64,000 nt of DNA from Amphiscolops sp. MND2022 (taxonomy: Eukaryota), in the NCBI GenBank assembly GCA_964187785.1, contig OZ076409.1, forward strand, positions 56,670,001-56,734,000, read 5' to 3'. The notes beneath the pieces were generated by a model, which saw nothing but the letters and a program-made list of their open reading frames with translations, ran no database searches and was not told the origin of the DNA. Below, piece after piece: positions 32,647-51,978 of this stretch. The translations under genes and the position numbers were made by a program. The stretch's first letter is position 1. Each line of letters begins with the position of its first letter.

Positions 32647-32857
32647 GTTGAACTTCATAATAAACCGTGCTTCATAATAAATATCATGTAATGATACCCC
32701 TGGCATACTAGCAATTGACCAGAATCTATGTAGACCAGTGACAGAGCAGCTGAGAAATACTGATTGCAAAATCCCGTCATTTGCAAAATGGGAGCCCGGG
32801 TTGACCCTCTTACTAGCATCTTGGCTGTCTTGGCAAGATCTTGCCAAATTCTTACTA

Positions 32858-33577
32858 TGTAACGTCAAGCTAGCAGCTACATTCCAGAACTGGGACAATG
32901 CTCAGGTTGCCTTAACAAGAGACCAATGTCTTATAACTACCTAAACATTAGTTTTTGATCCCAAGTGGTCTCTGCAGGGACTTTTCCAAGACGCCGAGGA
33001 GACTCCTCATATTAGAGCTCCGTGGCGACGTGCCGGCACACTCAAAGTCCGGACACGTCCCACAAGCACGTAAAAACAGTCCTAAAGGCTTCCCGCGATC
33101 CTACATATCTCCGAGGTCCGAAAACAGGGGTTTAGGCAAGGCTCATTTCAATTATGTGAATAACGTCTAAAATCAACAGTACGAGGATCTGGCAGATTCA
33201 ACATCACCATATATCTGCAAATAGTAATCAAAAACAACATAACTAATCAAATTAGGCTTTTCCAGCGCTTCTGTACTGATTTTGCAGTTTTCTTCATCTT
33301 CTTCTGATATGGGACATCTGGATCGAAGGCCATTTCTAGTACAATATACAATTTTCTGGGGAGATGACACAATTTCCGCGATCTTCTTGTCTCCTCATAC
33401 CGTGTGGATGTTCTTTCTTCTCTTCTGGGTCGGGGGGGGGGTTGTCTTTTTCGTTGTGTGTGCTTCTCTTTTTTTGATTTCAACGACCTGCTAGGTCGGC
33501 CATTTTGGATTCGCACATTTTCGACTTTTTCAACGAATTTTTGGTGCAAACTGGTATGTCGATTGGTGGACGTTACA
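32858..33577 (-). repeat. 3' LTR of the giant element
   Basis: Direct repeat of 51259-51978, with a 9-bp terminal inverted repeat TGTAACGTC. Confidence 0.97.
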
Positions 33578-34052: not shown

Positions 34053-34601
34053 TCACTTGTTGCTAGCGGCATCCATGACAGTGTCCTCTTCCTGCAACCC
34101 TTCATTTAGTGATACTGCTAATGCTTCTGACGATGATGGCTCTTGCTGATTCAAGTCTGGTAACCCACTGAGTTCAAGTTCAATATCAGCTGCCTGTAGC
34201 CTTGATAAAGTCACAGATGTGTCCTCCGCTACGTCTAGTGACACTGCTTGGTCATCTGAAGTAGTAGTTGTGATACTGTGCGTGGGTTGGTTGGCTTGTG
34301 CAGGATGTGAAATGAATACATCAGTATTTGCTGCTGCGGCTGGTGTGGTATTTGAATGACTCATAATTGACACTGCGGAAGTTGGATTGCCAGCGGCAGA
34401 AGTCTCCTCGTGCCCTGCTGCCCGTCCTGTCGAGGTAGAGCCCGCTGGGCATGCTTCTGGCAGCTGGTTTGCGAGGTCCTGGCGTCCGTAACTGGTGAAG
34501 ACTTCCCTGTAGGTCCCTACTGCATTTAGGTAACTGGTATAGACAGAATTGCTCTCTCCTCTCTGTTTGGCAATCAGGCTCATGAAGATCTCCATGGCCA
34601 T
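34053..34601 (-). CDS. Probable true C-terminus of ORF2, separated by a 1-nt frameshift
   Basis: Removing one base at 34603-34605 joins ...EEIMKKQSK to MAMEIFMSLIAKQ...DAASNK, giving a protein of about 1389 aa from ATG 38223. Confidence 0.65.
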   Translation of the reverse strand: MAMEIFMSLIAKQRGESNSVYTSYLNAVGTYREVFTSYGRQDLANQLPEACPAGSTSTGRAAGHEETSAAGNPTSAVSIMSHSNTTPAAAANTDVFISHPAQANQPTHSITTTTSDDQAVSLDVAEDTSVTLSRLQAADIELELSGLPDLNQQEPSSSEALAVSLNEGLQEEDTVMDAASNK

Positions 34602-37600
34602 CTTTGGATTGTTTCTTCATTATTTCTTCATTTAGAGGCAAAGGTTTTCGATTGGGTTCCTTGGCGATCTTTGGGACTGTTGCTTTCAATGCTTGATATC
34701 CTTGGTAGATCATCCTGTCTACTATTGGTGGATCAGCCCAATGTGTGGTTCTCGATAGAATATTGGCTGTGTCGGCTCGCGGTTCCGCTCGTGGGTTATA
34801 CATCCGGGACATATCGATCACTACTCGATGTTGGAGCGTCTCTGGCGTGGAGCCTTTTCTTCTTCCACCCAAACGTTGCACTGCATTGGATAGTACTCTA
34901 AGGATTCCAGGTTCATCCCAGCCAGTGAAGTGTTGCAGGGCCCCAGTACTAGGCTCAACGGGAGCGTGCAGCCATTCCACAGGGTGAAGTTCTAAGGGCA
35001 TGGGGATAGCGCACCGCGCTCTGGCTCGGATCAAGGCACCAAAGTTGTACTCTACCTGCTTCTTGTCCTTGATTATAGTAAACGCCATTGGTGGTCGGAA
35101 ATTGGTAAAGTTACGTACTAGCGCATGGAAGTCTGGCGGCCTGGCGTCGTCTTCCGGGTCTACGAAATGCAGGATTGACAGTGTGGGTGCGCTAGCGGCG
35201 ACCCTAAGTGGCTGCGTGGGGTACCTCAGAGCCATTACTGAGCCAAATATTGGCCAGATGATAGGAGCGATTAAGGGGATTAAGTCTTCCGTTTCCACCA
35301 ACATTAGACTGGCGACTTGTGATGGGAATAGAAAACCTGGCAGGTTTTTATCATTGCGTCTCTGACTGTGTGGGTCGTCCAAGGTGCTCATCATACCGGA
35401 GACATTGACCCAGGCTGAATAAATCCAAGCTAACATTGTCTCTACATTCTCGGTTAGCTGGGCGCGCAACTTTAAAGCGCCTGCGGGGTCCAGTGTATTC
35501 AAAATGGCGTTGATCCAACTTCTCCGGTTCTTTGCAAAGATAAGGAAGCTCAGCAGACTGGAGTTAGTCTTGCCTAGGATTAGCCCCTGCACTAAATGCA
35601 CAGGGCCTTTGTAGACGGCGCTTAGGCCGACGGCCATCAGGTAAGCCAAGATCTCTGCGATTGTGGCTCGCTGCATTGCTTCTATATATAATTTTGTCTG
35701 TTGTTCGTCTAAACTACTCTCGCTTGATACCATGGTCGGCACCCAAAATGGTGAAATATTGTAAAGAAATATGGGGAAGGGAATTCCATGGCTTTCCGCC
35801 ACTTCCACTAGAGTTCTCTGCAATGTTTCATGCCATGACTGGTAGGAGTGCTCTGGGTTCGCACGGTTTTCTTTTGCCGTCCTTTGCGCCAACACCACCA
35901 GCAGCACTAGGGTGGGCGAGACCATGTTGGGCTTTGAATCAATTGCCTGCATTGCTACTGGGAATACTGTTGTTTCTGTTCTGTTTTGCTTGATCTTTTC
36001 GGTCTCCCTGAAGAGGGCTAACAGCTCTTTGTGGAATTTTGCTTCATGGGTTTTCTCATCCAGTGTCGATTCATCTCTTCTCTCAAACCATCCGTTGTCG
36101 ATCATGTTAGTGCGTTCCTTTCCGTTCGGCTCTTTGACTTGGCGTACCCCGTTTTCATCGAAGGTACGGTGCGCCATTTGCATTCCAAAGTCGAAGGCAG
36201 TGGCATCATCGGCAAGTAATTGGGAGTTGCCCGAGTATCCTGTACAAGCCTGCAAGGCTTTCGAAATTTCTGCCAGGAATGCAGAGTAGGAATTTTCGCA
36301 TGGACGCCAGGTTGTGGCGCTTACTCTCAGGTTCGGTGCCACGATATGAAAGGATAATTTTTGGGCGTAGGCTGCTTCCGATATGAGATATAACAACTGT
36401 TGGAGTGGCCTGGGCAGATACACATATCCTGGGGGAGATACAAAGACTACCCCTACAGCGGGTTTCTTTTGTTGTGCCCGCCTGATAACGTTTCTCATCG
36501 TTTCAATGTACGCTGTCACTTCAGCCGTCATCACTTCCTCCGTTAGGTTACGGTTGCTCTCTGCGAAATACCTTAGAGTTCCTCGAAGAGCCAGGTGGTC
36601 AATCACGTTGCCGTAGATCAATAGCGGGGGAAATGGGATGGTTTCTGCATGATTAGCAGCAGGGCCAAAGACCTTGCAGGTCACTTCGGCCATTTCTTCT
36701 AATGAAGTACAGGGTAGGTTCATTACGCGAACATCCATCAGGGTGTTGTTCATGTTCGCAGTTGCCTTCATTGTAGAATCCATGAACAAGGCAATTCTCG
36801 TCTTTTGTAGCATTTCTTTGCCCATGGGGAGCAAAGTCGTCACATCTCTCATGAAATCGCGACTTCTCATCAACTGTTCGTCATATCTGGCTGGTCGTTG
36901 TACGGCTAGTTTCACCTTTGATGGCAATGGTTTCACTAACGACGACCTGTCTCTGTGGAGATCCTCTCTTACTCTTTCAAACCATGGAGGAATACGGTCC
37001 AATAGGAGTGTCGGATTCTTTACTGGTCTCAGATAGTGTATTCCAATGGATGCTCTTTCAAGGTTCCTTACATCCTCTGGGTTTCCTTTGCTGCTGGCCG
37101 TTTCAAATTTCTGGATATCCAGCCCTGAGTCCGGATTCCCCGACCTTGCTTCTTTCTGCAGACGCACAGCGTCTCTTGCAGCTATGTCGTACTGCCGGGC
37201 TTCCGTCTGTGATAGGAGCTCAGAGAATCGCACTCGCCTAGCTTCCGGCTGTTGCACTGGTGAGGGGTTCGGGCTGGAGTTTGTGGCTTCGGAATTGGCC
37301 AATTCTCTTGCTCTTTTCTTTTGAACCAATTGTTCAATCTTGTTTTGTTCTTTACGATTCAGGATATCTCGCAGATCAATAGGAGCCTTTGCTGCTCGTC
37401 TCTCCGTTTGCTCCTGTTCTTTTTGTTGTTCCTGTTTGTCTGGATCAGCCTGAAAACCTATTAGGTGCTGTGGATCCGTTGGTGTCATAGGCGTCAAGGC
37501 ATCATACGAGTCTGGTACCCCAATCACGTCTCTCATGATGGGTACGTCAAGCGGATTTCGCATCATGACTGTTCTTGGTTTCTGGCTGCTAGTTTCATCG

Positions 37601-38349
37601 GTGGTATGCGCACTAGTGTGCATTTCCTCCACCCCTTCCCCCCTGAAAGAGGAAGGGCGCATGAGTTCAGGGTCGCCCTCCGCTAATCGCCGGACGCTGA
37701 TGGAGGCGGACGGTGGGGGTGGTGTCAATACTGGTGGCGGTACTGGGGGTAGTAGGCATGTGATCTGTTGGAATGACGGTGTATGTCGAGATTGGTTGTT
37801 GTGGGCAGGTTGGAGTTGTTCCATGGGAAGCCTAGCAGGCTCATCATACCTCATGCTGGACCTGTGGTCGTCAAAGTGGTGGGTCAGATCATGACCGCGC
37901 CATGTACCATTGTGGAGTTCTGCTGTCCTGCGGTATGAACCGATTCCAACAGATATGGATAGGGTGAAGTCTGGGTGCATCTCCAGAGACTGCATTTGTG
38001 CAATCAGCATAGTCATCCCCGTTACCAGTGTCGGAAGGGCGCCTTCTTGAAGAGTTGATTGGACTAGACCAAGCTGGTCTATTGTGGCTTGGGCCCCATC
38101 TACGGGCAGCGAGGGCACGGGAGCTAGAGGTGTGGCTGACTGATTTTGGCTAGATTGGGAGGTGCTCGGCTGCGAGCTTGTTGTTGAAGGAGCTGGCAGG
38201 CGCGTTCTTGCCGACTGATCCATTATATGAATAGGTAGCACCTTAGACAAAAGATTACGTTGAGTGTACTGCAAATATGGTGATATGCGGCTGGCTGTGT
38301 CAAGTGCGTAGGAATTGACAGGACTGAACTGAAAAACAACAGACATCAA
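34321..38349 (-). CDS. ORF2 of the giant element (env position): large protein with a putative SGNH/GDSL-hydrolase-fold domain, likely start ATG 38223
   Basis: 1342-codon ORF. Disordered S/Q/P-rich N-terminus. SGNH-like blocks IALFMDST / NLPCTSLEEM / PPLLIYGNVIDHL / VVFVSPPG / TWRPCENSYSAFLAEISKAL at about 36250-36804. Hydrophobic helical C-terminal region. Confidence 0.85.
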   Translation of the reverse strand: MMSVVFQFSPVNSYALDTASRISPYLQYTQRNLLSKVLPIHIMDQSARTRLPAPSTTSSQPSTSQSSQNQSATPLAPVPSLPVDGAQATIDQLGLVQSTLQEGALPTLVTGMTMLIAQMQSLEMHPDFTLSISVGIGSYRRTAELHNGTWRGHDLTHHFDDHRSSMRYDEPARLPMEQLQPAHNNQSRHTPSFQQITCLLPPVPPPVLTPPPPSASISVRRLAEGDPELMRPSSFRGEGVEEMHTSAHTTDETSSQKPRTVMMRNPLDVPIMRDVIGVPDSYDALTPMTPTDPQHLIGFQADPDKQEQQKEQEQTERRAAKAPIDLRDILNRKEQNKIEQLVQKKRARELANSEATNSSPNPSPVQQPEARRVRFSELLSQTEARQYDIAARDAVRLQKEARSGNPDSGLDIQKFETASSKGNPEDVRNLERASIGIHYLRPVKNPTLLLDRIPPWFERVREDLHRDRSSLVKPLPSKVKLAVQRPARYDEQLMRSRDFMRDVTTLLPMGKEMLQKTRIALFMDSTMKATANMNNTLMDVRVMNLPCTSLEEMAEVTCKVFGPAANHAETIPFPPLLIYGNVIDHLALRGTLRYFAESNRNLTEEVMTAEVTAYIETMRNVIRRAQQKKPAVGVVFVSPPGYVYLPRPLQQLLYLISEAAYAQKLSFHIVAPNLRVSATTWRPCENSYSAFLAEISKALQACTGYSGNSQLLADDATAFDFGMQMAHRTFDENGVRQVKEPNGKERTNMIDNGWFERRDESTLDEKTHEAKFHKELLALFRETEKIKQNRTETTVFPVAMQAIDSKPNMVSPTLVLLVVLAQRTAKENRANPEHSYQSWHETLQRTLVEVAESHGIPFPIFLYNISPFWVPTMVSSESSLDEQQTKLYIEAMQRATIAEILAYLMAVGLSAVYKGPVHLVQGLILGKTNSSLLSFLIFAKNRRSWINAILNTLDPAGALKLRAQLTENVETMLAWIYSAWVNVSGMMSTLDDPHSQRRNDKNLPGFLFPSQVASLMLVETEDLIPLIAPIIWPIFGSVMALRYPTQPLRVAASAPTLSILHFVDPEDDARPPDFHALVRNFTNFRPPMAFTIIKDKKQVEYNFGALIRARARCAIPMPLELHPVEWLHAPVEPSTGALQHFTGWDEPGILRVLSNAVQRLGGRRKGSTPETLQHRVVIDMSRMYNPRAEPRADTANILSRTTHWADPPIVDRMIYQGYQALKATVPKIAKEPNRKPLPLNEEIMKKQSKDGHGDLHEPDCQTERREQFCLYQLPKCSRDLQGSLHQLRTPGPRKPAARSMPSGLYLDRTGSRARGDFCRWQSNFRSVNYESFKYHTSRSSKY

Positions 38350-38528
38350 TTTGGGCTAAAAGAACGTTCTTGACAAGTACAATTAGGCTACAGTCGAAGT
38401 TAAGAGACACATGATTAAAATAGAGTCGGTCATAATTAAAACCCAATTCGGCGATTGACTAAAACAATACAGGCGTTACAAGTTATGAGTGGGTTTCATT
38501 GTAATTACCCTGAACGTGCCACTGTAAT

Positions 38529-41500
38529 TCAATCAAGCTTAGACTTTCCATGATCAAGGCGTGTCTCAATTGAAGCAATGGACACATACACTCTGTCGTG
38601 TAAGACAACGTCAATATTGGAATCGATGAAATGGTCCCTCAACATTGAATACCAAGCTGGTAGCATGTTGATGGATCTTTCAGGGTCGTAGATGGGCAAA
38701 TGGATTTGGGTAGCGTGTGCTCGCATCAGCTTCTGTATTAGGTCTACTAGGCATAGATGTAGCACATCATGGAGGATGGGGTGTTTATTAGAGGCTCTCG
38801 TGATTAACAATATGATCTCGTTATTCCATGGCGCTGTTGTTGATTTCGGGAGGCGTATGGCCTTCCCCACAGCTGGGCGTAGCCGGAAGATTTCTTCTTG
38901 GCCGTATTCTCGAACAACATAGCGGGCCATTGCTGAGTACGCCAATAGGTCTGCTGGACAACAGATCGCCACAGTTCCTCGGGCTTGCAAAATGTCAGTT
39001 TCTTCGTAGGAAATCCATGACAAGTAATTCGGTTTGAATTTTGGGTGGGTCGTTAATAGCCTCCCAGTGATGGTGCTGTGATCGTTTTGGCCAAGTGAAA
39101 GATGAGCTAGAATGGCTTTATGATCTTGCCAGACTGTTCTACGCAAAGGCCTCGCTCCCATATTCGTGCAAGACCAATCATGAACTACGGATAGTGCTTC
39201 TAGCACGGTCACTGGATTTTCAAAAGTATACGTGTACTTGTCTAGTAGGTGTATTTTAGCTTGACGACAGAAAGTGATAGCTAGTAGCTGTAACCAATGT
39301 TGACTAAGGAATTTTCCACGATAAATGTCTGCTAGATGGAAGCACAGGGTGTCCTCAAACTCTACTAGTGTACGCAAGTTTTCTAGGCAGGTCAGTAGAG
39401 TTCCTGGGTTAACCGGTGATGATTCGTCCAAGGTGGTGACTAGTAACCACCAACCTGTCGTTGGGTGATATACGTCTCCCGGTGGTAAAGTCACACCATA
39501 TTGTTGCCATAGCTTCTGAGCTGTGATACAGCGTACCATTGCTATTTTCATGTCCTTCGGATCTAATTCGCCAAACACAATCGATGGTGGGAGTGGGGGA
39601 ATATTTGCTGCTAACGTGAATTCTAATCCACTTTTGTCATGCCACGTCCATTCCTTAAATCGATAGGTGGGGCTATCTGAGGGCGATGTTTCATGCATGG
39701 CTTTCAGCGTGGTTTCCAAGGGTGGGACCACACCTGGTCCGATGCTCGAATATGTCTTTTCCACAGTAATTACAATGTGATACACCCGTGAAATGTCTTG
39801 GTCATGGGTTTGTACGTGTCGAATTGTGTGTTGCATATGGTCTTCCGTCGTTTCAATGACAGCTAGGTCTGGGGCAGGAGCGGCTACTCCCCGGGCCAAT
39901 CGGTTGTCCGGTGATTTCCCTTCGACCAGGTTGACGCAGCTACAGTTGCGAGAACCACAGTTTCCACACCGATACTTGGGTGCTCTGTTGCGTCGTAGCA
40001 AATATGGTGGGGCTTGTGAAGGCGTTAGTCGTTCCGCTTCTGGTTGTTCCGGTGATACGCTTTCTGCAATGTTGGGCAATGTCATTGCACGTTCCAATGC
40101 TCGTGATTGTGCTCTGGTTTGTACTCTGTCTCTCGATTTAGTGCCTGGTCTGTTTGTTCTTGTGAGTGCTCTACTTGATGAGCTGGTACTTCCTCTTCTA
40201 CGCCCTGGAGGTCTACCTCTTGGTCTGCCTCTTCTAGTTGCAGTTCTCCCTGATGTGGGTGGTGCTTCTATGCTTTGACCCGGTTTTAGAATCTCCCTGT
40301 CAGTTGCTTCTTGGGGTTCGGCTTCCTCAACAGGTTCTGGTCCTACCGAGCTACCAGCTCGGGAACTGAACAGTGGGAAATTACTCAATGTATCGGTTAA
40401 TGCTGGGTTCGATAGCAATGGTGCGGAGGTTCCCGACGGTGAAGGTATCAGATTCTGTGCTGGTTCAGGTAAGATTTCTTCCTGATCAGAGAACAATGGT
40501 TCTAGGTCATCGATGTCAGGAAAAACTACTGGTTGCTGGGTTTCTTCGATGGGTTGTTCTATTGGTTCTGGATCAGATTCTGATTCGGATGGATATCCAA
40601 AGTGACTAAACCGTCTACGTGGGATTCCTTGTTCCAAAGCAGATTGAGTGCGTGTCTGAATCGTGCGGGGGGGGACGGGCGCAGTTGGTTCCATTTCAAA
40701 TGATGCCTCCGGCAGTTGTTCTGGAAGAAACGAATCTCGTGAAATATCAGAGGTAATTTCCTCATTACTTTCCTCCACATACGGGTCTGCCATGATGGCT
40801 ATATTCTGGTCTAAGCCGAAGGGTTGATGTGCTGCCCATTCCCAGGGCGCTGGCACATGTTTCTTCAAGCGCTCGAAATGAACTTTTTGGCCCGTGTCTA
40901 ACACGTAGAGTCGTCCATCTTGTAATACATCTGTGACCTTGTGAGGTCCACGCCAGGCACGAAGGAGTTTACGGGTGCCACCCTTGGGAATTATGTGGCA
41001 AAAAACCCAAACAGCGTCACCCACAGCATGAGCTTTTGCTTTCAAATGCCTGTCGAACTTCTGTTTTTGTCGTACTTGCGCCTGATGAGTGTTTCGGCGA
41101 ACAAGCTCGTGGATTTCTTGTTGTCTAGCAAGTAAGTGCTCTACAAATTCTTCTTTGGACCCAAACTCTCGCGCGGCAAATTCTGGGTATATGAACGAGA
41201 GCGGAATGGATTTTTCCGCGCCATGTTGGAGCATGTACGGGGAGAATCCCGTCGTCGCGTGTCTGGTTGAATTGTAGGCACCCAAGACTCCGTCTATGTG
41301 CTCATCCCAATCTGACATCCTGCGTGACGTATAGACTCTGAGCAAGGTGAGCAACGTTCGGTTCTGACGTTCAACTAAACCGTTGCCTCTAGGATGAGCT
41401 GGAGTAGATGTTACTTTAGTTACTTGCGAAGCTTTCATCAATTCTTGAGCAATCTCAGCAGTGAAGTTAGTGGCATTGTCCGACTGCATCCTGGCAGGAG

Positions 41501-44500
41501 TGCCATGTCTTGCAAACCATTTGTTCAGGATAATCTTTGCAGTCGTTTGAGCGTCGTACTCATCATGCGCACATGGGATTGCTTCTGCAAACTTGGTGAA
41601 GTGGTCGATGATAACTAACAATCCGTTATTTCCTGATGTTGTCTTGCACAACTTCAATTGGTCAAACTGCACCAAGTCGTTGAAATTGCTACTGTTGGTA
41701 CTTTGGAAGGGATAACAGGGATTCCCAGCGGGATGCTTTGTCTGTTGGCATGTTAAGCAGTGCTTAATATGATTGACAACATCGCGTTTGATGCCTGGCC
41801 AGGTGTGGCGTTCTTGTATTCTCGCCAACACTTTGCCAACGCCTTGGTGTCCTGATTCATCATGCGCTCTGTACAAGATTTCATGCTGGTAGAGTTGGGG
41901 CATGACAATCATGCATGGTCGTACGTGCATCGCGCGTTGCTGTGGAATGTAGTTGACACACAAGATGTCATTCTGATTCAAGAACAGTAAATCTTTCTTT
42001 TGATGGAAGTACCGTTTGGCGAAGTCCTGCACGTCCTCAGGGAACAGAGTGTCTTCCAATGGTTCGTTCTTCATGAGTTTCCTCAGTGCGAGAAGGTGGA
42101 CATCCCTGTTTTGAGCTAGATGTAGATCTTTCAATCCCCGCAGTGTCGATTGGTGTTCGTGCAGCTCAGTACCAGCTAGCCTAAGGACATCGGCTTGTTC
42201 TTGGCACTGCGTTGGCAATCTACGCAACGCTGGGTCCCGTTGGGTGGTATCGAGACGTGCCGCTGGCACTTTGGTCGTTACGCTAAGGATACAATTTGGC
42301 CTGTCGTCTTCAGTCGATGTGGGAGTTGTTTCCCATTGCACTTGTGGGTACCATGGTATGGAATTCGAAGAGGAATCTGAGGTCAGCTTCTCCTTTGGTG
42401 GCTTCTTCAAAATGTATAGCACAGGGAGTTGTGCTCGAGCTTCTGGTGGAAGCTCCGGATGGTCCGGAATGAATTTGCCATGTTTGTCGATATATGGCAC
42501 AGTTGGGAGTTCTTCGTAATCTTTCTGGGACATAAAGCTGAATCCCTTGCTCACTTCTGGTAGAGCTTCCACAATCTTCTCTCGATGCACGTAATCGTTG
42601 GTCCTTTTGCTAAGACCGTCCGCATTTCGGTGTTGCGTGCGTGGTCTGTGGATCGTCTTGAAGTGATATTGGTCAAGGCGCGCAATCCAGCGTCCAATCA
42701 TGGCTTGGTCCATTGAATACGTCTTCAGCCACGAGAGAGCCTGGTTGTCCACGCGCAGCGTGAATTCCCGACCCGCAAGGTAGGAATGGAATTTCTCGAT
42801 GAAATAGAATACCGCATACATTTCCAGCTTCGGGGCGCCATAATTCAATTGTGTTCGAGTCAGTGACTTGCTACCATAAACGATGGGACGGAGAATGGTT
42901 TTCCCCTTGTATTCTTGTTCCTGGTGCAGTATGCCGGCTATAGCAACTCCACTGGCATCTGTATCCAAAACAAAACGTCCTTCATCATTCGGGGCTGCCA
43001 AAGCTGTGGCATCAGCTAGTGCCTGTTTCACTGAATCAAACGCTTCTTGATGTTTTTCTTTCCAGTGGAAGTGTTGGTTCTTCTTTAACAACTCCTGCAT
43101 AGGCTGTACTTTGGCGGCGTGGAAAGGAATGAAGTCTCGGTAGTAGTTCGCGAATCCAAGGAAGCTTTGTAGCTCTTCTCTATTTCTTGGGGGCATCCAC
43201 TCTTGGATTTTGCTTACGGCAGCCGGGTCTGGCTTTATGCCTTCGGCAGAGACTACTCTTCCAAGGTATTTGGTTTCAGTGCGCATGAAATCACATTTCT
43301 CGGCTCGCATCTTGAAACCGGCCTCTCTGAGACATTCGAATACTTCTTTGATTCTCTCCAAATGATCTTCAATGGTCTCTGTAGCGATTACTATGTCGTC
43401 AATGTATGCCATGACAACACTTCCATGCCGTTGCTGGATTCTTTGCAGAGCTCGAGTGAAGGATCGCTGAAAGGTGGCCGATGCATTGCATAGCCCGAAG
43501 GGCATGCGTCGCCATTCAAACAGGCCAAGCTCACATGCGAAGGCGGTTTTTCTACGATCGCGCTTCTTCAGCGGGATCTGCCAAAAGGCCCACGCTAAGT
43601 CAATGCTCGTGAAGATTTTTGCATTCCCAATTCTTGAGAGGCTTTCGTCAATCCTGGGCAATGGAAATGCGTCCTTTACTGTTACATCGTTTAGCGGGCG
43701 GAAGTCACAGCAAAAGCGAAGCTCGCCTGTTTTCTTTTTTACCATGACTATGCCACTGGCCCACGGAGAATAGGAGGGTTGTATCAGTCCAAGGGCCAAC
43801 AAATTTTGCACTTCCTGATTGGCTTTCGCTGCCTTATCAGGGGACATTCGCCTTGTTCCTTCTCGGTGTGGTATAGCCTCCGGCTCTAGCTCTATCCTGT
43901 GCTTTGCAATCTTACACCTACCTATGTCAGACTTATTTTTCATGAATAGATCTTCGTACTCATTTAAAATAGTCTCTAACTTATCTCTCGCCTCTTCCCC
44001 CCATGAAGAAAGGACGGAAGAGAGGTCAGGGCCTGGGATTGCTTTTAGCAGTTGAGGATCTGTTCGCTTTCGCTTTTCACTCTCTGACAAATCTAACTCA
44101 GACGGTTCAGTCGAAGACAAGAAGTTTTGGGCAAAGGAACTAAATTCAGAACTGGTGTCCATATCAACATTCTGTTGTATTTGATGTACATGTTCGGCAA
44201 AAAGCTTCGAAGCTTCACCATTATTTTGCAAAGGAATTGAGTTCAATACAAAAGTGGTAAGCGCCGCTTTGCCAACAACAGTTTGTGCTTTAACCCTTAC
44301 CCGTTCTTTGTCAGTTTGATTACGTAGGGCTACGAATATTATGCCCTCTTCTCCCACGGAGGTTAGTGTATCTTCTGAAACAAAGACTGAGCGAGATTTG
44401 ATGCTACATGAATGGACCATTACATTACGAAATAGGAAATCATTTGGTTGTTGTGTGATGATCTTTGCGCGTACTACTTTTCTTTCAAATGGACCTAGCA

Positions 44501-47500
44501 CGACCTCATCAGTGGAGATAACAAACGATGGCTCTTGGTCACTTACCTCATGTACGGTTTTGAAGATTCGAGGTGTTTTGGGGTCCCTGATAGTAACTTT
44601 CATTGCCGTCAAATCCACCAACACGTTGTATGTACGCAAGAAGTTGCGACCCAGGAGGAAATCTTCTGAACCAATGTTATCCGCTATTACTACGAAATTG
44701 GTCTTCAGAGTGTATCCGCCAAGCTGAAAGCTTACGTCTTCAGCTATGCCAACAGTGGTGATGTTCTTGCCATTGGCAGCGAAGAGTTCAATGTCATGTG
44801 GTGTCAGGCTCAGCGCATGTTGGGAGGCAATCTTTTTGTATGCGCTCAAAGATAGAATTGAGACTCCCGAACCGGTGTCAATCATGCCGAAGAGTGGTAT
44901 CGGCTTTTGCAGAGGGGTTCCGAATGCCACAACTAGCGAAGCTCGTTCATCAATCTGAGCTTCCCCTTGTGCATCCTGTACTCCGATGTTATAACAACGC
45001 AGTTCTTGCCTGCCTAGATAGAGGCCTTGCGGAAAGTGTCCTTCCAGGACAACAATCGCATCAGACCTAACGTCCACGCCGTCAACCGTGATCGCTATGG
45101 GGACTGGCGCTATTGTCTTCACTCTCTGGACTTGAGCTAGTTTAGTCTCATCTGTTCTGGTGAAATGGGGTAATGGCCTGGAAGCTATCGTCAAGTTGGT
45201 ATTGCGGCAGAGTTCTTCCTTCAATTGCGCCAAGGTTAGGTTTGGGCGCGCCTTCTGCTCTGCCGAGAGTAACAAATGAATGGATATTAGCGTCTCAGTG
45301 CAGTCGGGCGCTGGGGCTTCAAGCGTCGTCAAGATTTGCTTTTCACCACAAGTCACGACCACCGGGCGTGAGGGGCCGCCATCTTCCGAAGTCGAAATCA
45401 CCCTTATTTGATCCTCTGAATCACGGTAGTCCCTGGAGTTCGTGACAGGGGCGTACCACGCCGTCCTTACCTGTTCTTCTGTCGCTGCATTGTCGGGTAT
45501 CGTACAGTCTGATGCCACGTGGCCGGAGCGACCGCAATTGACACAAAAAGCTGATGTGCTTTGTTCTGGTAGGGATGCGGGCACCAAGTCGTCATTCATG
45601 CCGCGCGGGTTTGATGGACATGTCCATTCTCCAGCTACGTTCGTGCGACACGAGTTAACTATTTGTTGCATTGGCTTCCTCGCTCGGTCCTTCAATGGGC
45701 AATCAGCTACAAAGTGTGAAGGGTCTCCACAGTTGAAGCATGCACGCTGCGGTTGCTGTCTGAAAGGCGCAGACGGTTGTTGGGGTTGCTGGGCGTTGGG
45801 CGGTTGAGGGGCTGGCGCCTGCGGTTGGTTTTGTTGATTTGCGGCAGCAGGAGGAAATTGCTGCTGATGTTGCTGGGGTGTGGGATAACTTTCAGATCGG
45901 GCCGCACCTCGCATGCGTAGGTATTGTTGCACGGTGAATCGTAGGGCCTCCACAGTTGGAGGTGTATCAACATACTGTTCCTGCGCGTACATGAGTGCAA
46001 GGTTTCGTTTCAGTTCGAAGCTACGTACTCCCTCGATGAATTTTTGCATGATTTCATAGCGTCTCACCGCCACTTCTTCGTTGGGGAAGCCTTGACTGCG
46101 TAAACCTTCCAATGCGTCCAGATATTGCATGTAATCCTCGTCGGGGGACTGATTTCGAGTGCGGAACTGTTGCTGAATTTGGATTTTGTTGGATCCCGTT
46201 CCAAACCTTCGTGCTAGTAGCGCGAAGACTTTTTCTTCAGTATCACGTTCCGCTTCTGATTTGTTCGTTATGTAGTCACGTGCCTCGTTTTCCAGAAATT
46301 CTACTATGGTCCATGCTTTATCCAGGGGGGTGTCCTTGGCGTGAGCTTTTCCCAGGTAGCGTTTCATTAACATCAGCCAACCATCCACTATCCCGTCGCG
46401 TGTGCCGCGGTATTTGGGCGGTTTGTTCTTGGTCTCTTTTGCGGCAAGTAACGGTTCCAGACCTTTAGACATCGCGGTGGTTATTGCTTCTGCCAACGTC
46501 TGACTGGGTATGGCATTCGGAGGGTTGTTGTTAGCAGTCCCGTTCACTGTTGCTGTATTCAAGTTCCTTTTGGTATTTGTCCTTCTCTGCGTGCTAGAGG
46601 CCAATGGCCGTGGTTGGGAACTATCGTAAGTAAAGGCTAAATGTTTCGCGCCCAGGACTGAAGAGGTGGCCGTGTGATATTCAGTGTTTCCCGTAACGGT
46701 GTTCATGTCACTGGGCATTTGGCCACTAGTCGCCGAATAGTAATCTCCCGTCGTCGAAGCACCTCTCGCATATGGGTCGAATGAAGGAGGGCCGGAAATC
46801 TCACAATATTGCGCTTCAGTTTGGTTTGCCGTTGAGGCATGGGTCTTCGCCGGCCTCTTTTGGTATGTTGCTGGGGGTTGCAACTTTGGTTGTTTCGTGT
46901 GATCAGATTTCATCACATTTTGACGTTGGGCAACTTCCCGATACGTAGGCCGCTGAGTCGGGAGCGCACTTGTGGATGGAGCATCTGCAGGGGCAAGTGC
47001 CACCGGCACAGGTGAGGGGCGGCTTGGTATCGTTGCTATCACGGTCTTCACCCCTAGGGTCAAGTCCTGGACCGTGGTCATAAGGTCCACCATGCGTTTA
47101 TCAACATCTAGGTCTCTGCGATATATCATCTCAGACATATTCTTGTGACGCTCCTCTGCTAATTGGTCTCTTTGCGCCATTATGGCTGTCATTTCTGATA
47201 TTCGCTTCTCCGTCAGGTCTTTAACTGTTGTCACGGATGTTTCGATTTTGCCTTGATTGGCGCGTCCTTCCATTTTTATTTCGGCTACTTCTTTTCTCAG
47301 CTCTTCCATTTTCATTTCCAGGACTCCTGCCCGTTGGATATGATCATTGTTTTCTTGGGCTAGCTTTACCTGGACCCGTTTCAATTGCTCCATGCTATGT
47401 CCAAAGTCTTCCTTTATTGCCTCGGTCTCTTTGATACCTCGGGTGATTGTTGAATTAGGGGAGGCTGCGCTGCCAGCATTAGAGTGTTGGGATATTGCTG

Positions 47501-48137
47501 TGCGCTCTAACCGCAAGACACTGGGGTCCAACACTGGTGGTGTGGCAAAGGCATAACTTTGTTGAGTCCAGTCTTTCCTGGTTTTCCGTTTTCCCAGTTG
47601 GCTTCCTGAGGGGATCATCGCGGTATTACCCAACGTGTCCCTACTGACTTCGAATACTGGTGTACCGGAATTCGGTGGGTCCGCACTCGTGCCCACATGT
47701 GGAGTAATATCTCCCAAAGTCATTCCCACCTTTGCATTCCCTACCCACTCGCTGATGTCCGAGCTAGTAGCTGCTTTTCTATTCGAGTTTGGCCAGTCCC
47801 CGGTAGCAATCACGGAAGCGTTTAAGGGAGGCCACACGTTGGTGCGGTTCATGGGAGTCCCAATTTCAATCTCAGCGCTATCCGGTGACGCCTGCGATGA
47901 ACTTGATTGGCTTGCTTGCGCAATTTGTGAGTTTTGCATCGTGTTTGGTACGTTGTCTGACATGACGTCGTCTAAAAACAGGTCGGCGGTCATATTCAGA
48001 GATGCCATTCCAGCTTGTATGCTCAGCGTGTGCAACCCTTCTATATCATTCGCGAATGGGTTGGTGGCATGAAAACCACGGTACTCGTCAGACGTTTCAC
48101 TCGATGATCTTAAGTACTCCCACTCGCTCAAACTCAT
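38529..48137 (-). CDS. Gag-Pol polyprotein, 3202 aa, single reading frame
   Basis: Coiled coil and capsid-like region (PPKYRGTRDG...). Two CCHC knuckles (45699-45740, 45504-45545). Protease IDTGSG (44871-44879). RT YIDD (43395-43406). RNase H LDTDAS...VDNQAL...NADGLS. Integrase HHCC, D,D,E and GPH motif (about 40860-41900). C-terminal extension of about 770 aa. Confidence 0.97.
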   Translation of the reverse strand: MSLSEWEYLRSSSETSDEYRGFHATNPFANDIEGLHTLSIQAGMASLNMTADLFLDDVMSDNVPNTMQNSQIAQASQSSSSQASPDSAEIEIGTPMNRTNVWPPLNASVIATGDWPNSNRKAATSSDISEWVGNAKVGMTLGDITPHVGTSADPPNSGTPVFEVSRDTLGNTAMIPSGSQLGKRKTRKDWTQQSYAFATPPVLDPSVLRLERTAISQHSNAGSAASPNSTITRGIKETEAIKEDFGHSMEQLKRVQVKLAQENNDHIQRAGVLEMKMEELRKEVAEIKMEGRANQGKIETSVTTVKDLTEKRISEMTAIMAQRDQLAEERHKNMSEMIYRRDLDVDKRMVDLMTTVQDLTLGVKTVIATIPSRPSPVPVALAPADAPSTSALPTQRPTYREVAQRQNVMKSDHTKQPKLQPPATYQKRPAKTHASTANQTEAQYCEISGPPSFDPYARGASTTGDYYSATSGQMPSDMNTVTGNTEYHTATSSVLGAKHLAFTYDSSQPRPLASSTQRRTNTKRNLNTATVNGTANNNPPNAIPSQTLAEAITTAMSKGLEPLLAAKETKNKPPKYRGTRDGIVDGWLMLMKRYLGKAHAKDTPLDKAWTIVEFLENEARDYITNKSEAERDTEEKVFALLARRFGTGSNKIQIQQQFRTRNQSPDEDYMQYLDALEGLRSQGFPNEEVAVRRYEIMQKFIEGVRSFELKRNLALMYAQEQYVDTPPTVEALRFTVQQYLRMRGAARSESYPTPQQHQQQFPPAAANQQNQPQAPAPQPPNAQQPQQPSAPFRQQPQRACFNCGDPSHFVADCPLKDRARKPMQQIVNSCRTNVAGEWTCPSNPRGMNDDLVPASLPEQSTSAFCVNCGRSGHVASDCTIPDNAATEEQVRTAWYAPVTNSRDYRDSEDQIRVISTSEDGGPSRPVVVTCGEKQILTTLEAPAPDCTETLISIHLLLSAEQKARPNLTLAQLKEELCRNTNLTIASRPLPHFTRTDETKLAQVQRVKTIAPVPIAITVDGVDVRSDAIVVLEGHFPQGLYLGRQELRCYNIGVQDAQGEAQIDERASLVVAFGTPLQKPIPLFGMIDTGSGVSILSLSAYKKIASQHALSLTPHDIELFAANGKNITTVGIAEDVSFQLGGYTLKTNFVVIADNIGSEDFLLGRNFLRTYNVLVDLTAMKVTIRDPKTPRIFKTVHEVSDQEPSFVISTDEVVLGPFERKVVRAKIITQQPNDFLFRNVMVHSCSIKSRSVFVSEDTLTSVGEEGIIFVALRNQTDKERVRVKAQTVVGKAALTTFVLNSIPLQNNGEASKLFAEHVHQIQQNVDMDTSSEFSSFAQNFLSSTEPSELDLSESEKRKRTDPQLLKAIPGPDLSSVLSSWGEEARDKLETILNEYEDLFMKNKSDIGRCKIAKHRIELEPEAIPHREGTRRMSPDKAAKANQEVQNLLALGLIQPSYSPWASGIVMVKKKTGELRFCCDFRPLNDVTVKDAFPLPRIDESLSRIGNAKIFTSIDLAWAFWQIPLKKRDRRKTAFACELGLFEWRRMPFGLCNASATFQRSFTRALQRIQQRHGSVVMAYIDDIVIATETIEDHLERIKEVFECLREAGFKMRAEKCDFMRTETKYLGRVVSAEGIKPDPAAVSKIQEWMPPRNREELQSFLGFANYYRDFIPFHAAKVQPMQELLKKNQHFHWKEKHQEAFDSVKQALADATALAAPNDEGRFVLDTDASGVAIAGILHQEQEYKGKTILRPIVYGSKSLTRTQLNYGAPKLEMYAVFYFIEKFHSYLAGREFTLRVDNQALSWLKTYSMDQAMIGRWIARLDQYHFKTIHRPRTQHRNADGLSKRTNDYVHREKIVEALPEVSKGFSFMSQKDYEELPTVPYIDKHGKFIPDHPELPPEARAQLPVLYILKKPPKEKLTSDSSSNSIPWYPQVQWETTPTSTEDDRPNCILSVTTKVPAARLDTTQRDPALRRLPTQCQEQADVLRLAGTELHEHQSTLRGLKDLHLAQNRDVHLLALRKLMKNEPLEDTLFPEDVQDFAKRYFHQKKDLLFLNQNDILCVNYIPQQRAMHVRPCMIVMPQLYQHEILYRAHDESGHQGVGKVLARIQERHTWPGIKRDVVNHIKHCLTCQQTKHPAGNPCYPFQSTNSSNFNDLVQFDQLKLCKTTSGNNGLLVIIDHFTKFAEAIPCAHDEYDAQTTAKIILNKWFARHGTPARMQSDNATNFTAEIAQELMKASQVTKVTSTPAHPRGNGLVERQNRTLLTLLRVYTSRRMSDWDEHIDGVLGAYNSTRHATTGFSPYMLQHGAEKSIPLSFIYPEFAAREFGSKEEFVEHLLARQQEIHELVRRNTHQAQVRQKQKFDRHLKAKAHAVGDAVWVFCHIIPKGGTRKLLRAWRGPHKVTDVLQDGRLYVLDTGQKVHFERLKKHVPAPWEWAAHQPFGLDQNIAIMADPYVEESNEEITSDISRDSFLPEQLPEASFEMEPTAPVPPRTIQTRTQSALEQGIPRRRFSHFGYPSESESDPEPIEQPIEETQQPVVFPDIDDLEPLFSDQEEILPEPAQNLIPSPSGTSAPLLSNPALTDTLSNFPLFSSRAGSSVGPEPVEEAEPQEATDREILKPGQSIEAPPTSGRTATRRGRPRGRPPGRRRGSTSSSSRALTRTNRPGTKSRDRVQTRAQSRALERAMTLPNIAESVSPEQPEAERLTPSQAPPYLLRRNRAPKYRCGNCGSRNCSCVNLVEGKSPDNRLARGVAAPAPDLAVIETTEDHMQHTIRHVQTHDQDISRVYHIVITVEKTYSSIGPGVVPPLETTLKAMHETSPSDSPTYRFKEWTWHDKSGLEFTLAANIPPLPPSIVFGELDPKDMKIAMVRCITAQKLWQQYGVTLPPGDVYHPTTGWWLLVTTLDESSPVNPGTLLTCLENLRTLVEFEDTLCFHLADIYRGKFLSQHWLQLLAITFCRQAKIHLLDKYTYTFENPVTVLEALSVVHDWSCTNMGARPLRRTVWQDHKAILAHLSLGQNDHSTITGRLLTTHPKFKPNYLSWISYEETDILQARGTVAICCPADLLAYSAMARYVVREYGQEEIFRLRPAVGKAIRLPKSTTAPWNNEIILLITRASNKHPILHDVLHLCLVDLIQKLMRAHATQIHLPIYDPERSINMLPAWYSMLRDHFIDSNIDVVLHDRVYVSIASIETRLDHGKSKLD

Positions 48138-51100
48138 TTTCGCTCACTCAATCTCAGTTTTCCACTAATTGATGCGGCAAAAACTTTTTCTCTTTCTGTC
48201 TTACTCTCACTCCTTCCCTTCAACAAACGAAATTAAGGCAACTCGAATTGGAAGTATTAATATCCCTTCCTCCGATTGTCTAACTAAACTGTTATACTAT
48301 TTTGTTCTGGAGCTTGTAGCTCGCGATTGCCTTCTGGGTTCTAAGTCAAGATCAGCTGGCTTTCATGAACACAATACTATTAATTACATGCACTAACTCA
48401 AGATTACATGCACTGGTGCTAATCACCACTAATCTGAACAGAAAGGTTTGCTTCCCCACTAACTGGAGATAGTTATCCTATTAAAAGTTAAAGTTAAGCC
48501 TTTTAAAAAAAATTTTTTTTTGAGGTACTTTGACAAGCTACTTGCACTAAACTACGCTTGATCCAGCCACAGGCTATGCGGTTGGAGCGAACAAAAAGGT
48601 TTTGGCACGCTAGTAGGGTTTTACGGAGGTTTATTCAAGAAATCACCGTACTTTGCTTCACAAACGTGCTTTATGTTACTCGCATTGCCCTTTAATAAGA
48701 GAGCACACGAGGGATTACTACAAAAAGGGGAATTGGGGAATAGACCTTGGGGGTGAGCAAGTGTCAGAACACCTTAGAACGAGAGGATTTTCCCAATCTG
48801 ATCGTAGCACGGTCAATAGAAATACAGATCTTCACTATTTCAAATGCTATTACACTCAATTTCCTGTCTCGAGACGCACCGCGTCCGAAGTCTAAGTCTC
48901 CTAGAAAACTCCTAGATGCGTTCTAGCTTTCTCACGTCACTTCTCAGTCGAGGCCAACGTGGCTATAGCTATTAGCTCGCACTTAGGTGACTTCGGTGGC
49001 CGTTAGTAGAGAAAACACGTTTTTTGTGTTTTTCACTCCTATGTCTCGTCAACAGTTTTCTAATGAACCCAAGATCTTAGGGTTGAGCTAGCTCTATTCT
49101 GATTGCCTCAACAGGACGTGCTATGGGTGGCTAGGGTAGAACTAGGGTTGTTTGAGCCCTCACTTGCTACTACACCTACGAAATGTATGCTATTTTTCGC
49201 AAAATTTCTCAAAATCAGCAATTTTTTCACCAAGGTGCACGCCTGGAACAGGTGAAAATCACTTCTAGAGCTAGTAGCGACCTGAAAATTTAACACGGTA
49301 TACTACAGTGGCTAAATCGTGGGAAACTAACCGCCGATTGCGCCAAAATTGTTTCCTCGTGACTCAGGGTCGCTCACCAATGTTACTTGAAAAATCGACT
49401 ATGTTGCAAAATTCACACAAGTTTGTCAAACTCGCCTTCCAGGCTTCCTAGCTACTTGAAATTTTGTATGCGAGCGTGTATTATGCCCACGTAACAGAAA
49501 AACAATATAGCGGGGTTCCCAGGTCGATATTCAGCAATCCGAGTTGACAAAACTATGCTGTACTCTATATGTCACTTTCAAGGGTCAAAATTCACAAAAT
49601 TGTCAATTTCTCTAAGTTGGCCAGTAGCAGGCTGCTCAAAATGCACAAATCGTCGGGATCTAGTGCCGTATGTACGAAAATGCAAGAATTTTAGTGCTGG
49701 GATACCTGCAAGGTATTGCACTATGCTCAACTAAAATTCAATTTTTTCGACATTTTCGGATCATTTTTGAGCAAAACTGCGGCTAAGATTTCTCGATCAC
49801 TAGTAATGGTAGCGCTACGAAACTTACACCACTAACGTAACTTTTTGCGGTCTACACGATGGTGCAATCCGTTTTGGGCTACTCCTGCTAGGAGAGATTT
49901 CGACTTGTCTTGGAAACACTACTCCAATGTTCCGATAATGTCGCAAAAATAGCACGTCTTAGGCTATTTCTCAACAACCACTGGTTGGAATCACTCGCGG
50001 TTTTCGGCGTTAGTAATCTAGTACTCTCTACTAACAGAAAATAGGCGAGCAAAACCTGGCAGGTTCCAAATAAGGTCTCTCAAAATTGATTTTAGGTTAC
50101 ACCTTGGACACTCTGGGAACACCTATGAAAAACACGTATTTTCCCTAGGAACTTTTTATTTTTCGGTTCCCAGAGGTTCGGGATGGTTTTAACAGTACAG
50201 TAGGAAGGTGTAACTACTTTATTTAGGGGACTGGGGTTCTTTCAATTATTACTTTTGATGTTATACCTCTCAGGTCTATGGGGTCCTGTACTCAGATCTA
50301 TATATATTGAAAGAAACAAGCTGTTAAAGTTTCAATTTTAATAGGGGAGCCTTAAAAAACAACTTGGTAGTAGTGTCTTGTACTACCAAGCTAGGGAACA
50401 AGGTTTTTGGGCTGATCTGAAAGCTTTGGGTCAAGTGCCCAAGACTTTGCCCTCGTCAAATTTGGTCTTTTTGGCCAATTTCGACTTTTTCTCAATAAAA
50501 TTCACACAATTTCTCGATTTTACACCAAGTTGGCCCAACAAATTTTTCTGTTCCTGACCTAGCAGGTCTGATGGAACGTTTTTCCCGTATTCCCAGTGGC
50601 CGTATCCTTTTTCACAAATTTTCACCCTTCAAAATCCGTAAAATCGCTATTTGAGCTATATAGGGTGTTGTTTTCAAGGTTTTCACGCTCAAATTTTTAA
50701 TCAACTGGTTCAAACACCCTCAGGGTATTTTTCCCAGTTAGTTTTAGTGGGGATAGGCCTGGGAATATGCTTTTTGGGCCGATTATTAGCAAGAATTGGC
50801 AATATAACCCGATTGTCGTGGGTATTCGGCAACTAGAGAGGTACTGGAGGTGTGACGTCTGAGGTGCTCACACACTGTCGTCAGCTAGCTGGGGCCTTCA
50901 GCACTCGTCCTCTCGGTCCTCATACATTGCCAATTTACTGAAATAGAGCTGCAAAACCCTTTAAAACCAGTTCCGGATAGGCCGGATTCACTTTTTCAAC
51001 AGATATTATCGAAATACAGGGGGTACACTGTCTGAAATCGCCGATTTTCGGTTCCAGACCTCGGAAATACGCTGGAAACGCAGGAAAAACACTAATACAA

Positions 51101-51224: not shown

Positions 51225-51242
51225 GTCCCTTGTGGGGCGCCA
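51225..51242 (-). promoter_or_regulatory. Primer-binding site, tRNA-Lys-like, 16 nt inside the 5' LTR boundary
   Basis: TGGCGCCCCACAAGGGAC matches 15/18 positions of the tRNA-Lys3 PBS TGGCGCCCGAACAGGGAC. Confidence 0.7.
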
Positions 51243-51258
51243 TAAAAACTATCCTAGA

Positions 51259-51978
51259 TGTAACGTCAAGCTAGCAGTTACATTCCAGAACTGGGACAAT
51301 GCTCAGGTTGCCTTAACAAGAGACCAATGTCTTATAACTACCTAAACATTAGTTTTTGATCCCAAGTGGTCTCTGCAGGGACTTTTCCAAGACGCCGAGG
51401 AGACTCCTCATATTAGAGCTCCGTGGCGACGTGCCGGCACACTCAAAGTCCGGACACGTCCCACAAGCACGTAAAAACAGTCCTAAAGGCTTCCCGCGAT
51501 CCTACATATCTCCGAGGTCCGAAAACAGGGGTTTAGGCAAGGCTCATTTCAATTATGTGAATAACGTCTAAAATCAACAGTACGAGGATCTGGCAGATTC
51601 AACATCACCATATATCTACAAATAGTAATCAAAAACAACATAACTAATCAAATTAGGCTTTTCCAGCGCTTCTGTACTGATTTTGCAGTTTTCTTCATCT
51701 TCTTCTGATATGGGACATCTGGATCGAAGGCCATTTCTAGTACAATATACAATTTTCTGGGGAGATGACACAATTTCCGCGATCTTCTTGTCTCCTCATA
51801 CCGTGTGGATGTTCTTTCTTCTCTTCTGGGTCGGGGGGGGGGTTGTCCTTTTCGTTGTGTGTGCTTCTTTTTTTTTGATTTCAACGACCTGCTAGGTCGG
51901 CCATTTTGGATTCGCACATTTTCGACTTTTTCAACGAATTTTTGGTGCAAACTGGTATGTCGATTGGTGGACGTTACA
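51259..51978 (-). repeat. 5' LTR of the giant element
   Basis: Direct repeat of 32858-33577. Confidence 0.97.

Follow-up and report, generated by a model that had tools for sequence, protein, structure and literature searches.

A tandem of predicted TARG1-class pseudo-macrodomains at the end of the Gag-Pol frame of a Ty3/gypsy retrotransposon from Amphiscolops sp. MND2022

RESULTS

Organization of the element

We analyzed a window of 64,000 nucleotides of the Amphiscolops sp. MND2022 assembly (contig OZ076409.1, positions 56,670,001 to 56,734,000). It contains a 19-kb LTR element whose single Gag-Pol ORF ends, in frame, with two predicted macrodomains denoted D1 and D2 (Table 1). The element displays the hallmarks of Ty3/gypsy elements, namely LTRs, a primer-binding site, a purine tract and the Pol order protease-RT-RNase H-integrase. 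Its two LTRs differ at 4 positions over 720 bp. The ORF codes successively for a capsid-like region, two CCHC knuckles, protease, RT, RNase H, integrase and a C-terminal extension. Pfam matches were obtained for RVT_1, RT_RNaseH, Integrase_H2C2, rve, zf-CCHC and Asp_protease_2, and the Pfam scan of this ORF returned no match beyond residue 2294. The peptides quoted in the initial annotation of this DNA were found in the minus-strand 3204-aa ORF, with SIVFGEL starting from position 39584 (residue 2854), ISYEETDIL from position 39014 (residue 3044) and NIDVVLH at residue 3176.

Table 1. Features of the element, in positions of the window
Feature	Position	Strand	Details
5' LTR	51259..51978	-	720 bp, TGT...ACA; repeat of 32858-33577
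Primer-binding site, tRNA-Lys(TTT)	51225..51242	-	16 nt downstream of LTR end; host tRNA genes match
Single Gag-Pol ORF	38529..48143	-	3204 codons, stop to stop
Integrase (Zn-binding, core, C-terminal part)	40839..41900	-	residues 2082-2435; Pfam
Acidic low-complexity linker	40314..40826	-	residues 2440-2610; net charge -26
AT-hook-like RGRP motif, within basic stretch	40194..40235	-	motif pattern
Cys cluster YxCGxCGxRxCxC, putative zinc site	39933..39974	-	conservation; putative metal binding
Beta-rich segment ahead of D1	39609..39836	-	41-84% identity across subfamilies
D1, predicted TARG1-class pseudo-macrodomain	39237..39602	-	residues 2848-2969
D1 phosphate loop, D-x-x-R-G	39315-39329	-	
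Two-helix connector D1-D2	39033..39218	-	helices predicted in both models
D2, predicted TARG1-class pseudo-macrodomain	38586..39032	-	residues 3038-3186
D2 Arg at K84 position	38796-38798	-	
D2 DPERS at GCGLD position	38673-38687	-	
Second ORF, conserved in family	34321..38355	-	1344 codons; no Pfam match
3' LTR	32858..33577	-	720 bp; purine-rich tract before; 3-bp target duplication flanks element

Ty3/gypsy elements usually generate target duplications of 4-6 bp. The window family departs from this norm, with duplications of 3 bp at 9/9 loci and at 7/8 loci of a further set. The passage of PMC10741241 that deals with 3-bp target site duplications concerns CACTA elements. The second ORF of the element has a counterpart at the equivalent location in a diverged subfamily, 30% identical to it along 722 aa. 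Its tentative identification by eye as an SGNH esterase was rejected, given the lack of a Pfam match, an hhalign probability of 0.2% against one GDSL sequence and no match in the ESM Atlas.

The initial annotation described the macrodomains as fused to the integrase C terminus. They do follow the integrase in frame, but about 410 residues lie in between, comprising the acidic linker, an AT-hook-like motif, a Cys cluster and the beta-rich segment. The AT-hook-like RGRP motif is present as a pattern in all 27 long proteins of the family (P0001-P0027) and in 29 of the 33 proteins examined, and it gave no profile match. The cluster of four Cys residues is kept in 30 of those 33 proteins, and the acidic linker as a whole has dN/dS ratios of 0.10-0.27. 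By eye, the sequence that follows this Cys cluster looks similar to that at other borders between Pol domains, and the pair may be cut off from the polyprotein. The Pfam scan of the Gag-Pol ORF yielded no Chromo domain, and both C-terminal domains are predicted to fold as macrodomains.

Profile searches relate D2 to TARG1, and D1 to D2

Neither the window protein nor its parts matched the Pfam Macro family (PF01661) at the curated cut-off, and a single-sequence phmmer search of PDB gave no useful match. The ESM Atlas, queried with the single sequence, returned leads that were all below 0.9; a Macro cluster figured among these, ranked 20th. A 16-row family profile, A2, missed TARG1 in PDB. Thus, since the window sequence alone has no Pfam Macro or useful PDB match, the likeness to TARG1 first noted by eye could be established only with profiles. 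From a 16-row family alignment we collected 357 proteins at E up to 0.001, of which 150 were listed. The 66-row profile A3 was built from 53 selected database fragments and 13 genomic rows, leaving out fragments judged by eye to be frameshifted. Among 177,635 PDB sequences, with E up to 10, A3 matched only five chains, all of human TARG1, with E about 0.002.

A Pfam Macro search of the genome yielded 24 matches, 3 strong ones of host type and 21 weak ones located mostly in retroelement ORFs. We aligned 18 distinct TARG1-like domains from retroelement ORFs of the same genome as a reference set; one of the TARG1-like domains of this genome, that of family L104, matches human TARG1 with an E of 1e-27. 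In hhalign comparisons with the reference domains, D2 reached a probability of 97% (E 1.3e-10, 138 columns) and a score of 65.6, compared with a maximum of 16.5 over 30 column shuffles and 11.2 for the reversed profile. The direct match of D1 to TARG1-like profiles was weak (probability 5.6%, E 0.007, score 21.7 versus a shuffle maximum of 16.3), and no sister or unrelated element scored above 5 bits with the D1 HMM. D1 matched D2 with a probability of 92% (E 5e-7, 121 columns, score 44 versus a shuffle maximum of 18). As to related proteins, homologue P0165 scored an E of 0.3 against Pfam Macro, and the sister element P0332 passed it at 23.4 bits. At the level of sequence profiles, homology to TARG1 is indicated directly for D2, and for D1 only through D2.

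Both domains are predicted to adopt the TARG1 fold

D1 was modeled with AlphaFold2 together with the connector and without D2, from 59 rows, yielding a mean pLDDT of 84. Foldseek placed TARG1 at ranks 1-8 (best E 1.7e-5), and TARG1 was also the top match in VIA (Z 12.6, rmsd 3.1, 118 aligned), followed by BT1257 (Z 12.2) and DarG (Z 11.5). The two-domain model had a mean pLDDT of 62.9. D2 taken from this model gave TARG1 at Foldseek ranks 1-7 (TM 0.81, rmsd 2.4), and the wide structure search again returned TARG1 (Z 15.9, rmsd 3.1, 141 aligned), then DarG (Z 14.7) and BT1257 (Z 12.9). Identity to the enzymes in these structure alignments was 14-17%. Human TARG1, also called OARD1 or C6orf130 (PDB 4J5R, 4J5S, 2LGR), is thus the top structural match of both domains and shares their minimal macro fold. 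The ALC1-like class to which it belongs also includes DarG, BT1257, SCO6735 and Poa1p.

Because the direct TARG1-profile match of D1 remains weak, we assign this domain from its similarity to D2 and from the fold predicted for it. The models assign both D1 and D2 to the TARG1 class of ALC1-like minimal macrodomains. The proposal of two macro folds made in the initial annotation is therefore borne out by the profiles as well as by AlphaFold and Foldseek, which put TARG1 first for both domains. Its label "TARG1/Poa1p-like" holds for the TARG1 class; Poa1p scored lower (Z 11.4 versus 15.9 for D2 and 10.6 versus 12.6 for D1).

The pocket residues of TARG1 are substituted

TARG1 uses K84 and D125 and binds the pyrophosphate with its GxG loop, and its signature is TKx(30,35)Px[IL]GxGxD, as described in PMC6397177. 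We located the equivalent positions by counting along the TARG1 chain, with the column register taken from the HMMER alignment, and scored the A3 rows having a residue at the column, fragments of decayed copies included. In D2, the K84 position is occupied by R in 45 of 49 rows; such a highly conserved Arg at a catalytic position weighs against plain loss of binding. In the phosphate loop, D replaces G121 (38/40 rows), E replaces G123 (32/40) and R replaces L124 (37/39), while the D125 position is mostly P, S or G, with no D among the six commonest letters (39 rows). The G43 position is A in 38 of 45 rows. D1 has the same D-x-x-R loop (D in 34/37 rows, R in 35/37); its loop 1 is shorter by about 9 residues, and the position of K84 is not occupied by a basic residue. 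The TARG1 signature was found in none of the 66 A3 rows, about 40 of which cover the loop, compared with 11 of the 18 reference domains of other families; 6 of the 7 failures in that set belong to one family that deviates at the [IL] position. That the glycine loops and the catalytic Lys and Asp are substituted, as the initial annotation had it, is supported by these counts.

In TARG1, the G123E substitution abolishes ADP-ribose binding and catalysis and raises stability, PAR is a poor competitor for the mutant protein, and its RNA binding and nucleolar location are kept, according to PMC5928194. Judging from their own substitutions, the tag-binding pockets of D1 and D2 are predicted to be blocked, with loss of ADP-ribose binding. 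Since SCO6735, a hydrolase of the ALC1-like class, is active without the Lys/Asp pair, as reported in PMC7050489 and PMC9967889, the absence of the catalytic residues does not prove inactivity. On the basis of sequence, D1-D2 is likely a binding module rather than an enzyme.

The module is under purifying selection in a large family

Five pairwise comparisons between subfamilies, which are not independent of each other, gave dN/dS ratios of 0.034-0.100 for D1 and 0.054-0.125 for D2, at dS values of 0.5-1.8; RT had ratios of 0.008-0.030. Both domains are under purifying selection. Across subfamilies in which RT is 79% and D1/D2 about 45% identical, the Pol frame stays open through both domains. 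These data refute the idea that D1/D2 is a decaying remnant devoid of present function, to which the 14-17% identity to enzymes and the lack of a Pfam match might have pointed, unless an overlapping function constrains the same codons; homologues at 30-35% identity, for which no close copy was found in this genome, also argue against it.

A search of the genome (1.07 Gb) with D2 returned 3483 candidates; the 150 that were scored had 79-100% identity, 13 of them 100%. The window family is large and recently active. Further subfamilies are about 65% and about 43% identical over D1-D2, and many keep the domains in the open frame of Pol. P0165, P0061 and P0065 are homologues at 30-35% identity, and two of them, used to search this genome, gave no match above 36%. 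As no close copy of these two was found here, the module is likely present in other species.

The initial annotation suggested an analysis of insertion-site bias, and none was detected at chromosome scale, in flank GC or near tRNA genes. We mapped 267 copies (141 of 150 from one search set and 126 of 132 from another), after setting aside 13 copies that lie on unplaced contigs as well as 2 tandem partners. Their distribution over 13 chromosomes fits chromosome length (p 0.40), and within chromosomes neither their positions deviate from uniformity (p 0.10) nor their spacings from randomness (p 0.33), so that chromosome-scale clustering was rejected. GC content was 0.382 in 29 flanks and 0.381 in 40 control pieces, and no single repeat was common to the insertion flanks examined. 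Targeting of tRNA genes was discarded as well, as none of 27 LTR loci had a tRNA gene. These tests address chromosome scale, GC and tRNA genes and are blind to a bias for chromatin state.

Related elements carry single TARG1-like domains

An RT-RNase H search returned 461 long relatives, of which 120 were listed. Among the listed relatives at 53-57% RT identity, P0332, P0333 and P0335 carry at their end a single macrodomain satisfying the TARG1 signature, and P0336 ends in one degenerate macrodomain. The terminal domain of P0308 is D2-like, having Arg in place of K84 and a D-x-x-R loop. The segment ahead of it reached 17-19% against D2 and TARG1-like profiles and 0.3% against D1, and a tandem in P0308 is therefore no more than a lead.

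In an RT-RNase H tree of 36 rows, a 19-row clade (100/100) unites the window family with P0308, P0336 and P0332/P0333/P0335. In it, P0336 and P0332/P0333/P0335 are sister (98/95) to a group (100/98) formed by the window family, P0308 and a branch in which we saw no macro match. The tree was rooted at the midpoint, and the long-branch warnings touch rows outside this clade. This last branch, which includes P0317, showed no macro match after the integrase, and most of its rows end at or before the integrase; the C-terminal piece of P0317, used as a query, was not found in this genome. Because this branch belongs to the same clade, some relatives do without the module. The D2 profile scored 79 bits with P0308, 52 with P0335, 41 with P0332, 35 with P0336 and 25 or less with unrelated families, and within the clade the scores (79, 52, 41, 41 and 35) follow the RT-RNase H tree. 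In all macro-bearing members of the clade examined, the domain is C-terminal.

In distant gypsy families of the same genome (23-34% identical in RT), a TARG1-like domain follows the integrase in L104 and L106, separates RNase H from integrase in L107 and protease from RT in L105, and comes after a protease-like segment in L108. These single domains, as well as those of P0332, P0333 and P0335, are of the same fold class as D1 and D2, and Pfam Macro detects them.

The domains are 17-26% identical, and the simplest history would start from one C-terminal TARG1-like domain whose pocket was remodeled and which was then duplicated. Remodeling is placed before duplication because the D-x-x-R loop is common to both copies.

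DISCUSSION

In the reading we favor, D1-D2 would be a non-catalytic adaptor within Pol that holds the integration complex on chromatin in a non-site-specific manner through a putative host protein or nucleic acid partner. We give it a probability of roughly 45%. A single active TARG1-like domain would have closed the ancestral Pol, as it appears to do in the sister elements; its GCGL phosphate loop would have become D-x-x-R, closing the pocket, and duplication would have followed the loop change, D1 then shedding part of its loop 1. The pocket-closed tandem would bind a host protein or nucleic acid, with the AT-hook-like and Cys motifs acting beside it, the whole forming a long tether between the integration complex and host chromatin that would choose no specific sites. 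The position at the end of Pol and the neighboring AT-hook-like motif fit a tether. However, since other families have the TARG1-like domain between protease and RT or between RNase H and integrase, it need not act through the integrase. A precedent for a host-derived domain located after the integrase at the end of Pol is the chromodomain of chromoviruses, which in MAGGY targets H3K9me regions, as stated in 10.1101/2021.11.30.470311. D1-D2 differs from it by its fold, its distance of about 410 residues from the integrase and the lack of an insertion bias at chromosome scale or in GC.

It may be instead that the protease releases the pair as an accessory pseudo-enzyme. Like the coronavirus SUD, it would block a host protein of defense or ADP-ribosylation by contact, or bind the RNA of the element for translation or packaging. 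We consider this somewhat unlikely. Within this genome, TARG1-like domains are found at three places along Pol, a location-independent pattern that would agree with such a role, but in all macro-bearing members of the clade examined here the domain sits at the C terminus, and cleavage sites were judged by eye only. The RNA binding of TARG1 takes place outside the pocket and persists in the G123E variant (PMC5928194), and SUD-N binds Paip1 (PMC8167360), whereas the net charge of D1-D2 ranges from -10 to +5 in 16 sequences, with no conserved basic character for RNA binding.

Another explanation, which we regard as unlikely, is that D2 is a remodeled active site whose Arg and D-x-x-R loop handle a different phosphate-bearing ligand, for instance the modified end of a DNA or RNA molecule. 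The conservation of R at the K84 position in 45/49 rows and of the loop D and R in at least 37/40, down to about 30% identity, would be accounted for, although a conserved D and R can equally form a structural cap. The ALC1-like class is mechanistically diverse, as illustrated by SCO6735, active without both residues (PMC9967889, PMC7050489), and TARG1 itself works on ADP-ribose at nucleic-acid ends (PMC7050489). Nevertheless, the acidic residue at G121 and the Glu at G123 sit where the pyrophosphate binds (PMC6397177, PMC5928194), and D1 lacks both part of loop 1 and a basic residue at the K84 position.

The initial annotation envisaged a decoy against ADP-ribosylation, in which the pair would still bind ADP-ribose or PAR and thereby shield the element from defense or read PAR-marked chromatin for integration. 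The descent from a TARG1-like domain and the full signature of the sister elements are in line with this idea, as are the tandem macrodomains of PARP14, a reader module that can be aligned along D1 and D2 together (Z 10.9, rmsd 14.6). It is nonetheless poorly supported and appears improbable, as the pocket bears the equivalent of G123E, which in TARG1 blocks ADP-ribose binding and leaves PAR a poor competitor (PMC5928194). The signature is absent from all 66 A3 rows, about 40 of them covering the loop, and the loss of the glycine stretch in SUD accompanies the loss of binding (PMC2674928).

SUD, which consists of the Mac2-Mac3 domains of coronavirus nsp3, parallels the proposed adaptor in design in that it comprises tandem macro folds without the glycine loop. 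It fails to bind ADP-ribose and binds G-quadruplexes, as reported in PMC2674928, and it also binds Paip1 according to PMC8167360. The comparison of D1 with SUD Mac2 gave a Z of 7.9, which is within the common range. None of our tests gave SUD a TARG1 origin; the likeness is one of design by analogy and not of kinship, and for the window pair loss of ADP-ribose binding is predicted. A broader and rather doubtful scenario would set animal gypsy elements against host ADP-ribosylation. Several lineages would have captured a TARG1-type eraser, each at its own place in Pol, and the highly successful lineage of the window would have turned it into a duplicated, pocket-closed adaptor docking the integration complex on a host factor linked to chromatin or PARP. 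If true, the pair would be the equivalent of SUD in a retrotransposon and an integrase tether of a new type, its family being one that generates 3-bp duplications. Together with this pair, the TARG1-like domains found at three Pol positions in distant families suggest that LTR retrotransposons are under pressure from ADP-ribosylation.

Some non-LTR elements also have macrodomains. In fish, macro-domain ORFs are present in some epsilon-like retroviruses, as mentioned in PMC4977317 citing Basta et al. 2009. There, as in the window family, a macrodomain was captured by an LTR retroelement, but as far as that account goes those of the fish viruses are additional ORFs, whereas the window pair is in frame with Pol, tandem and degenerate. 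In a literature search that covered few subscription journals and Repbase-type reports, we found no account of a gypsy Pol with a TARG1 domain, be it tandem or degenerate, nor of TARG1-like or tandem macrodomains in such a Pol. D1-D2 escapes Pfam, and domains of this kind are hence missed.

Compared with TARG1, the window pair consists of two tandem copies set in a retroelement polyprotein and deviates from the signature, with R at K84 of D2, no D125 and D-x-x-R in place of the GxG loop. P0332, P0333 and P0335 belong to the same RT clade and have their domain at the same place, but in a single copy with the signature intact in 3/3. A single retrotransposon clade therefore offers a traceable series, with an ADP-ribose eraser that appears intact at one end and a pseudo-enzyme, duplicated and still under selection, at the other, and its intact and degenerate domains make a ready pair for a comparison of binding and activity.

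Target-site duplications and priming

The window family is flanked by target duplications of 3 bp, found in 9/9 paired or solo LTRs (loci L138-L167), and the diverged subfamily (loci L192-L207) showed a 3-bp duplication in seven of eight elements. The middle base was A or T in all 16 cases from both groups. As the target duplications of LTR elements are usually 4 to 6 bp long, standard LTR-element finders may overlook elements of this type. At 3 of the 30 LTR loci (L140, L147 and L151), one LTR was common to two head-to-tail elements.

The primer-binding site of the window element starts 16 nt past the end of the 5′ LTR (window 51225-51258), and that of the diverged subfamily approximately 15 nt past it, whereas this gap usually amounts to a few bases. 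Such a long gap would require unusual processing of the cDNA end. The primer is tRNA-Lys(TTT), whose pattern gave 664 matches across the genome. On C7 of this genome, from about 5.22 Mb (L171), tRNA-Lys(TTT) genes are repeated in tandem about every 193 bp. The leader is very long, with approximately 3 kb (window 48144-51224) separating the primer-binding site from the Gag-Pol ORF; no ORF of more than 100 codons was found in the portion covered by the ORF listing (48144-50000).

Subfamily divergence and other ORFs

Between subfamilies, dS changes sharply along Pol (residues 1430-1850 of the window-family protein P0001), with for instance 0.12 in RT versus 1.27 in Gag. This unevenness of the synonymous divergence suggests recombination among subfamilies.

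The second ORF of the window element shares 30% identity over 722 aa with its positional counterpart in a diverged subfamily. It had no match in Pfam or Atlas, and its reading as an SGNH-like protein was supported neither by those searches nor by further comparison. The ORF that overlaps its end gave no significant match in a Pfam search.

TARG1-like domains in other families

Other retroelement families of this genome harbor single TARG1-like domains, at differing places in Pol (L104 to L108). The published TARG1 signature was present in 11 of the 18 distinct TARG1-like domains from other families. On the sister branch comprising P0305, P0310 and P0317, no macro match was found downstream of the integrase in P0317, and P0310 contains an in-frame GDSL lipase domain (Pfam E value of 9e-7, with a score short of the cut-off).

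Elsewhere in the window, three perfect or near-perfect palindromes have arms of 44 to 97 nt without a spacer.

Locations of the features described
Feature	Location	Strand
Target duplication, 3 bp, flanking the window element	window 32855-32857 and 51979-51981	
Second ORF, 1344 codons	window 34321-38355	-
187-codon ORF, other frame, overlapping the second ORF at its end	window 34053-34616	-
Palindrome	window 8295-8572	
Palindrome	window 8932-9049	
Palindrome	window 2648-2737	
Single TARG1-like domain, L104	G000 (this genome) C12	
Single TARG1-like domain, L105	G000 C1	
Single TARG1-like domain, L106	G000 C8	
Single TARG1-like domain, L107	G000 C3	
Single TARG1-like domain, L108	G000 C8
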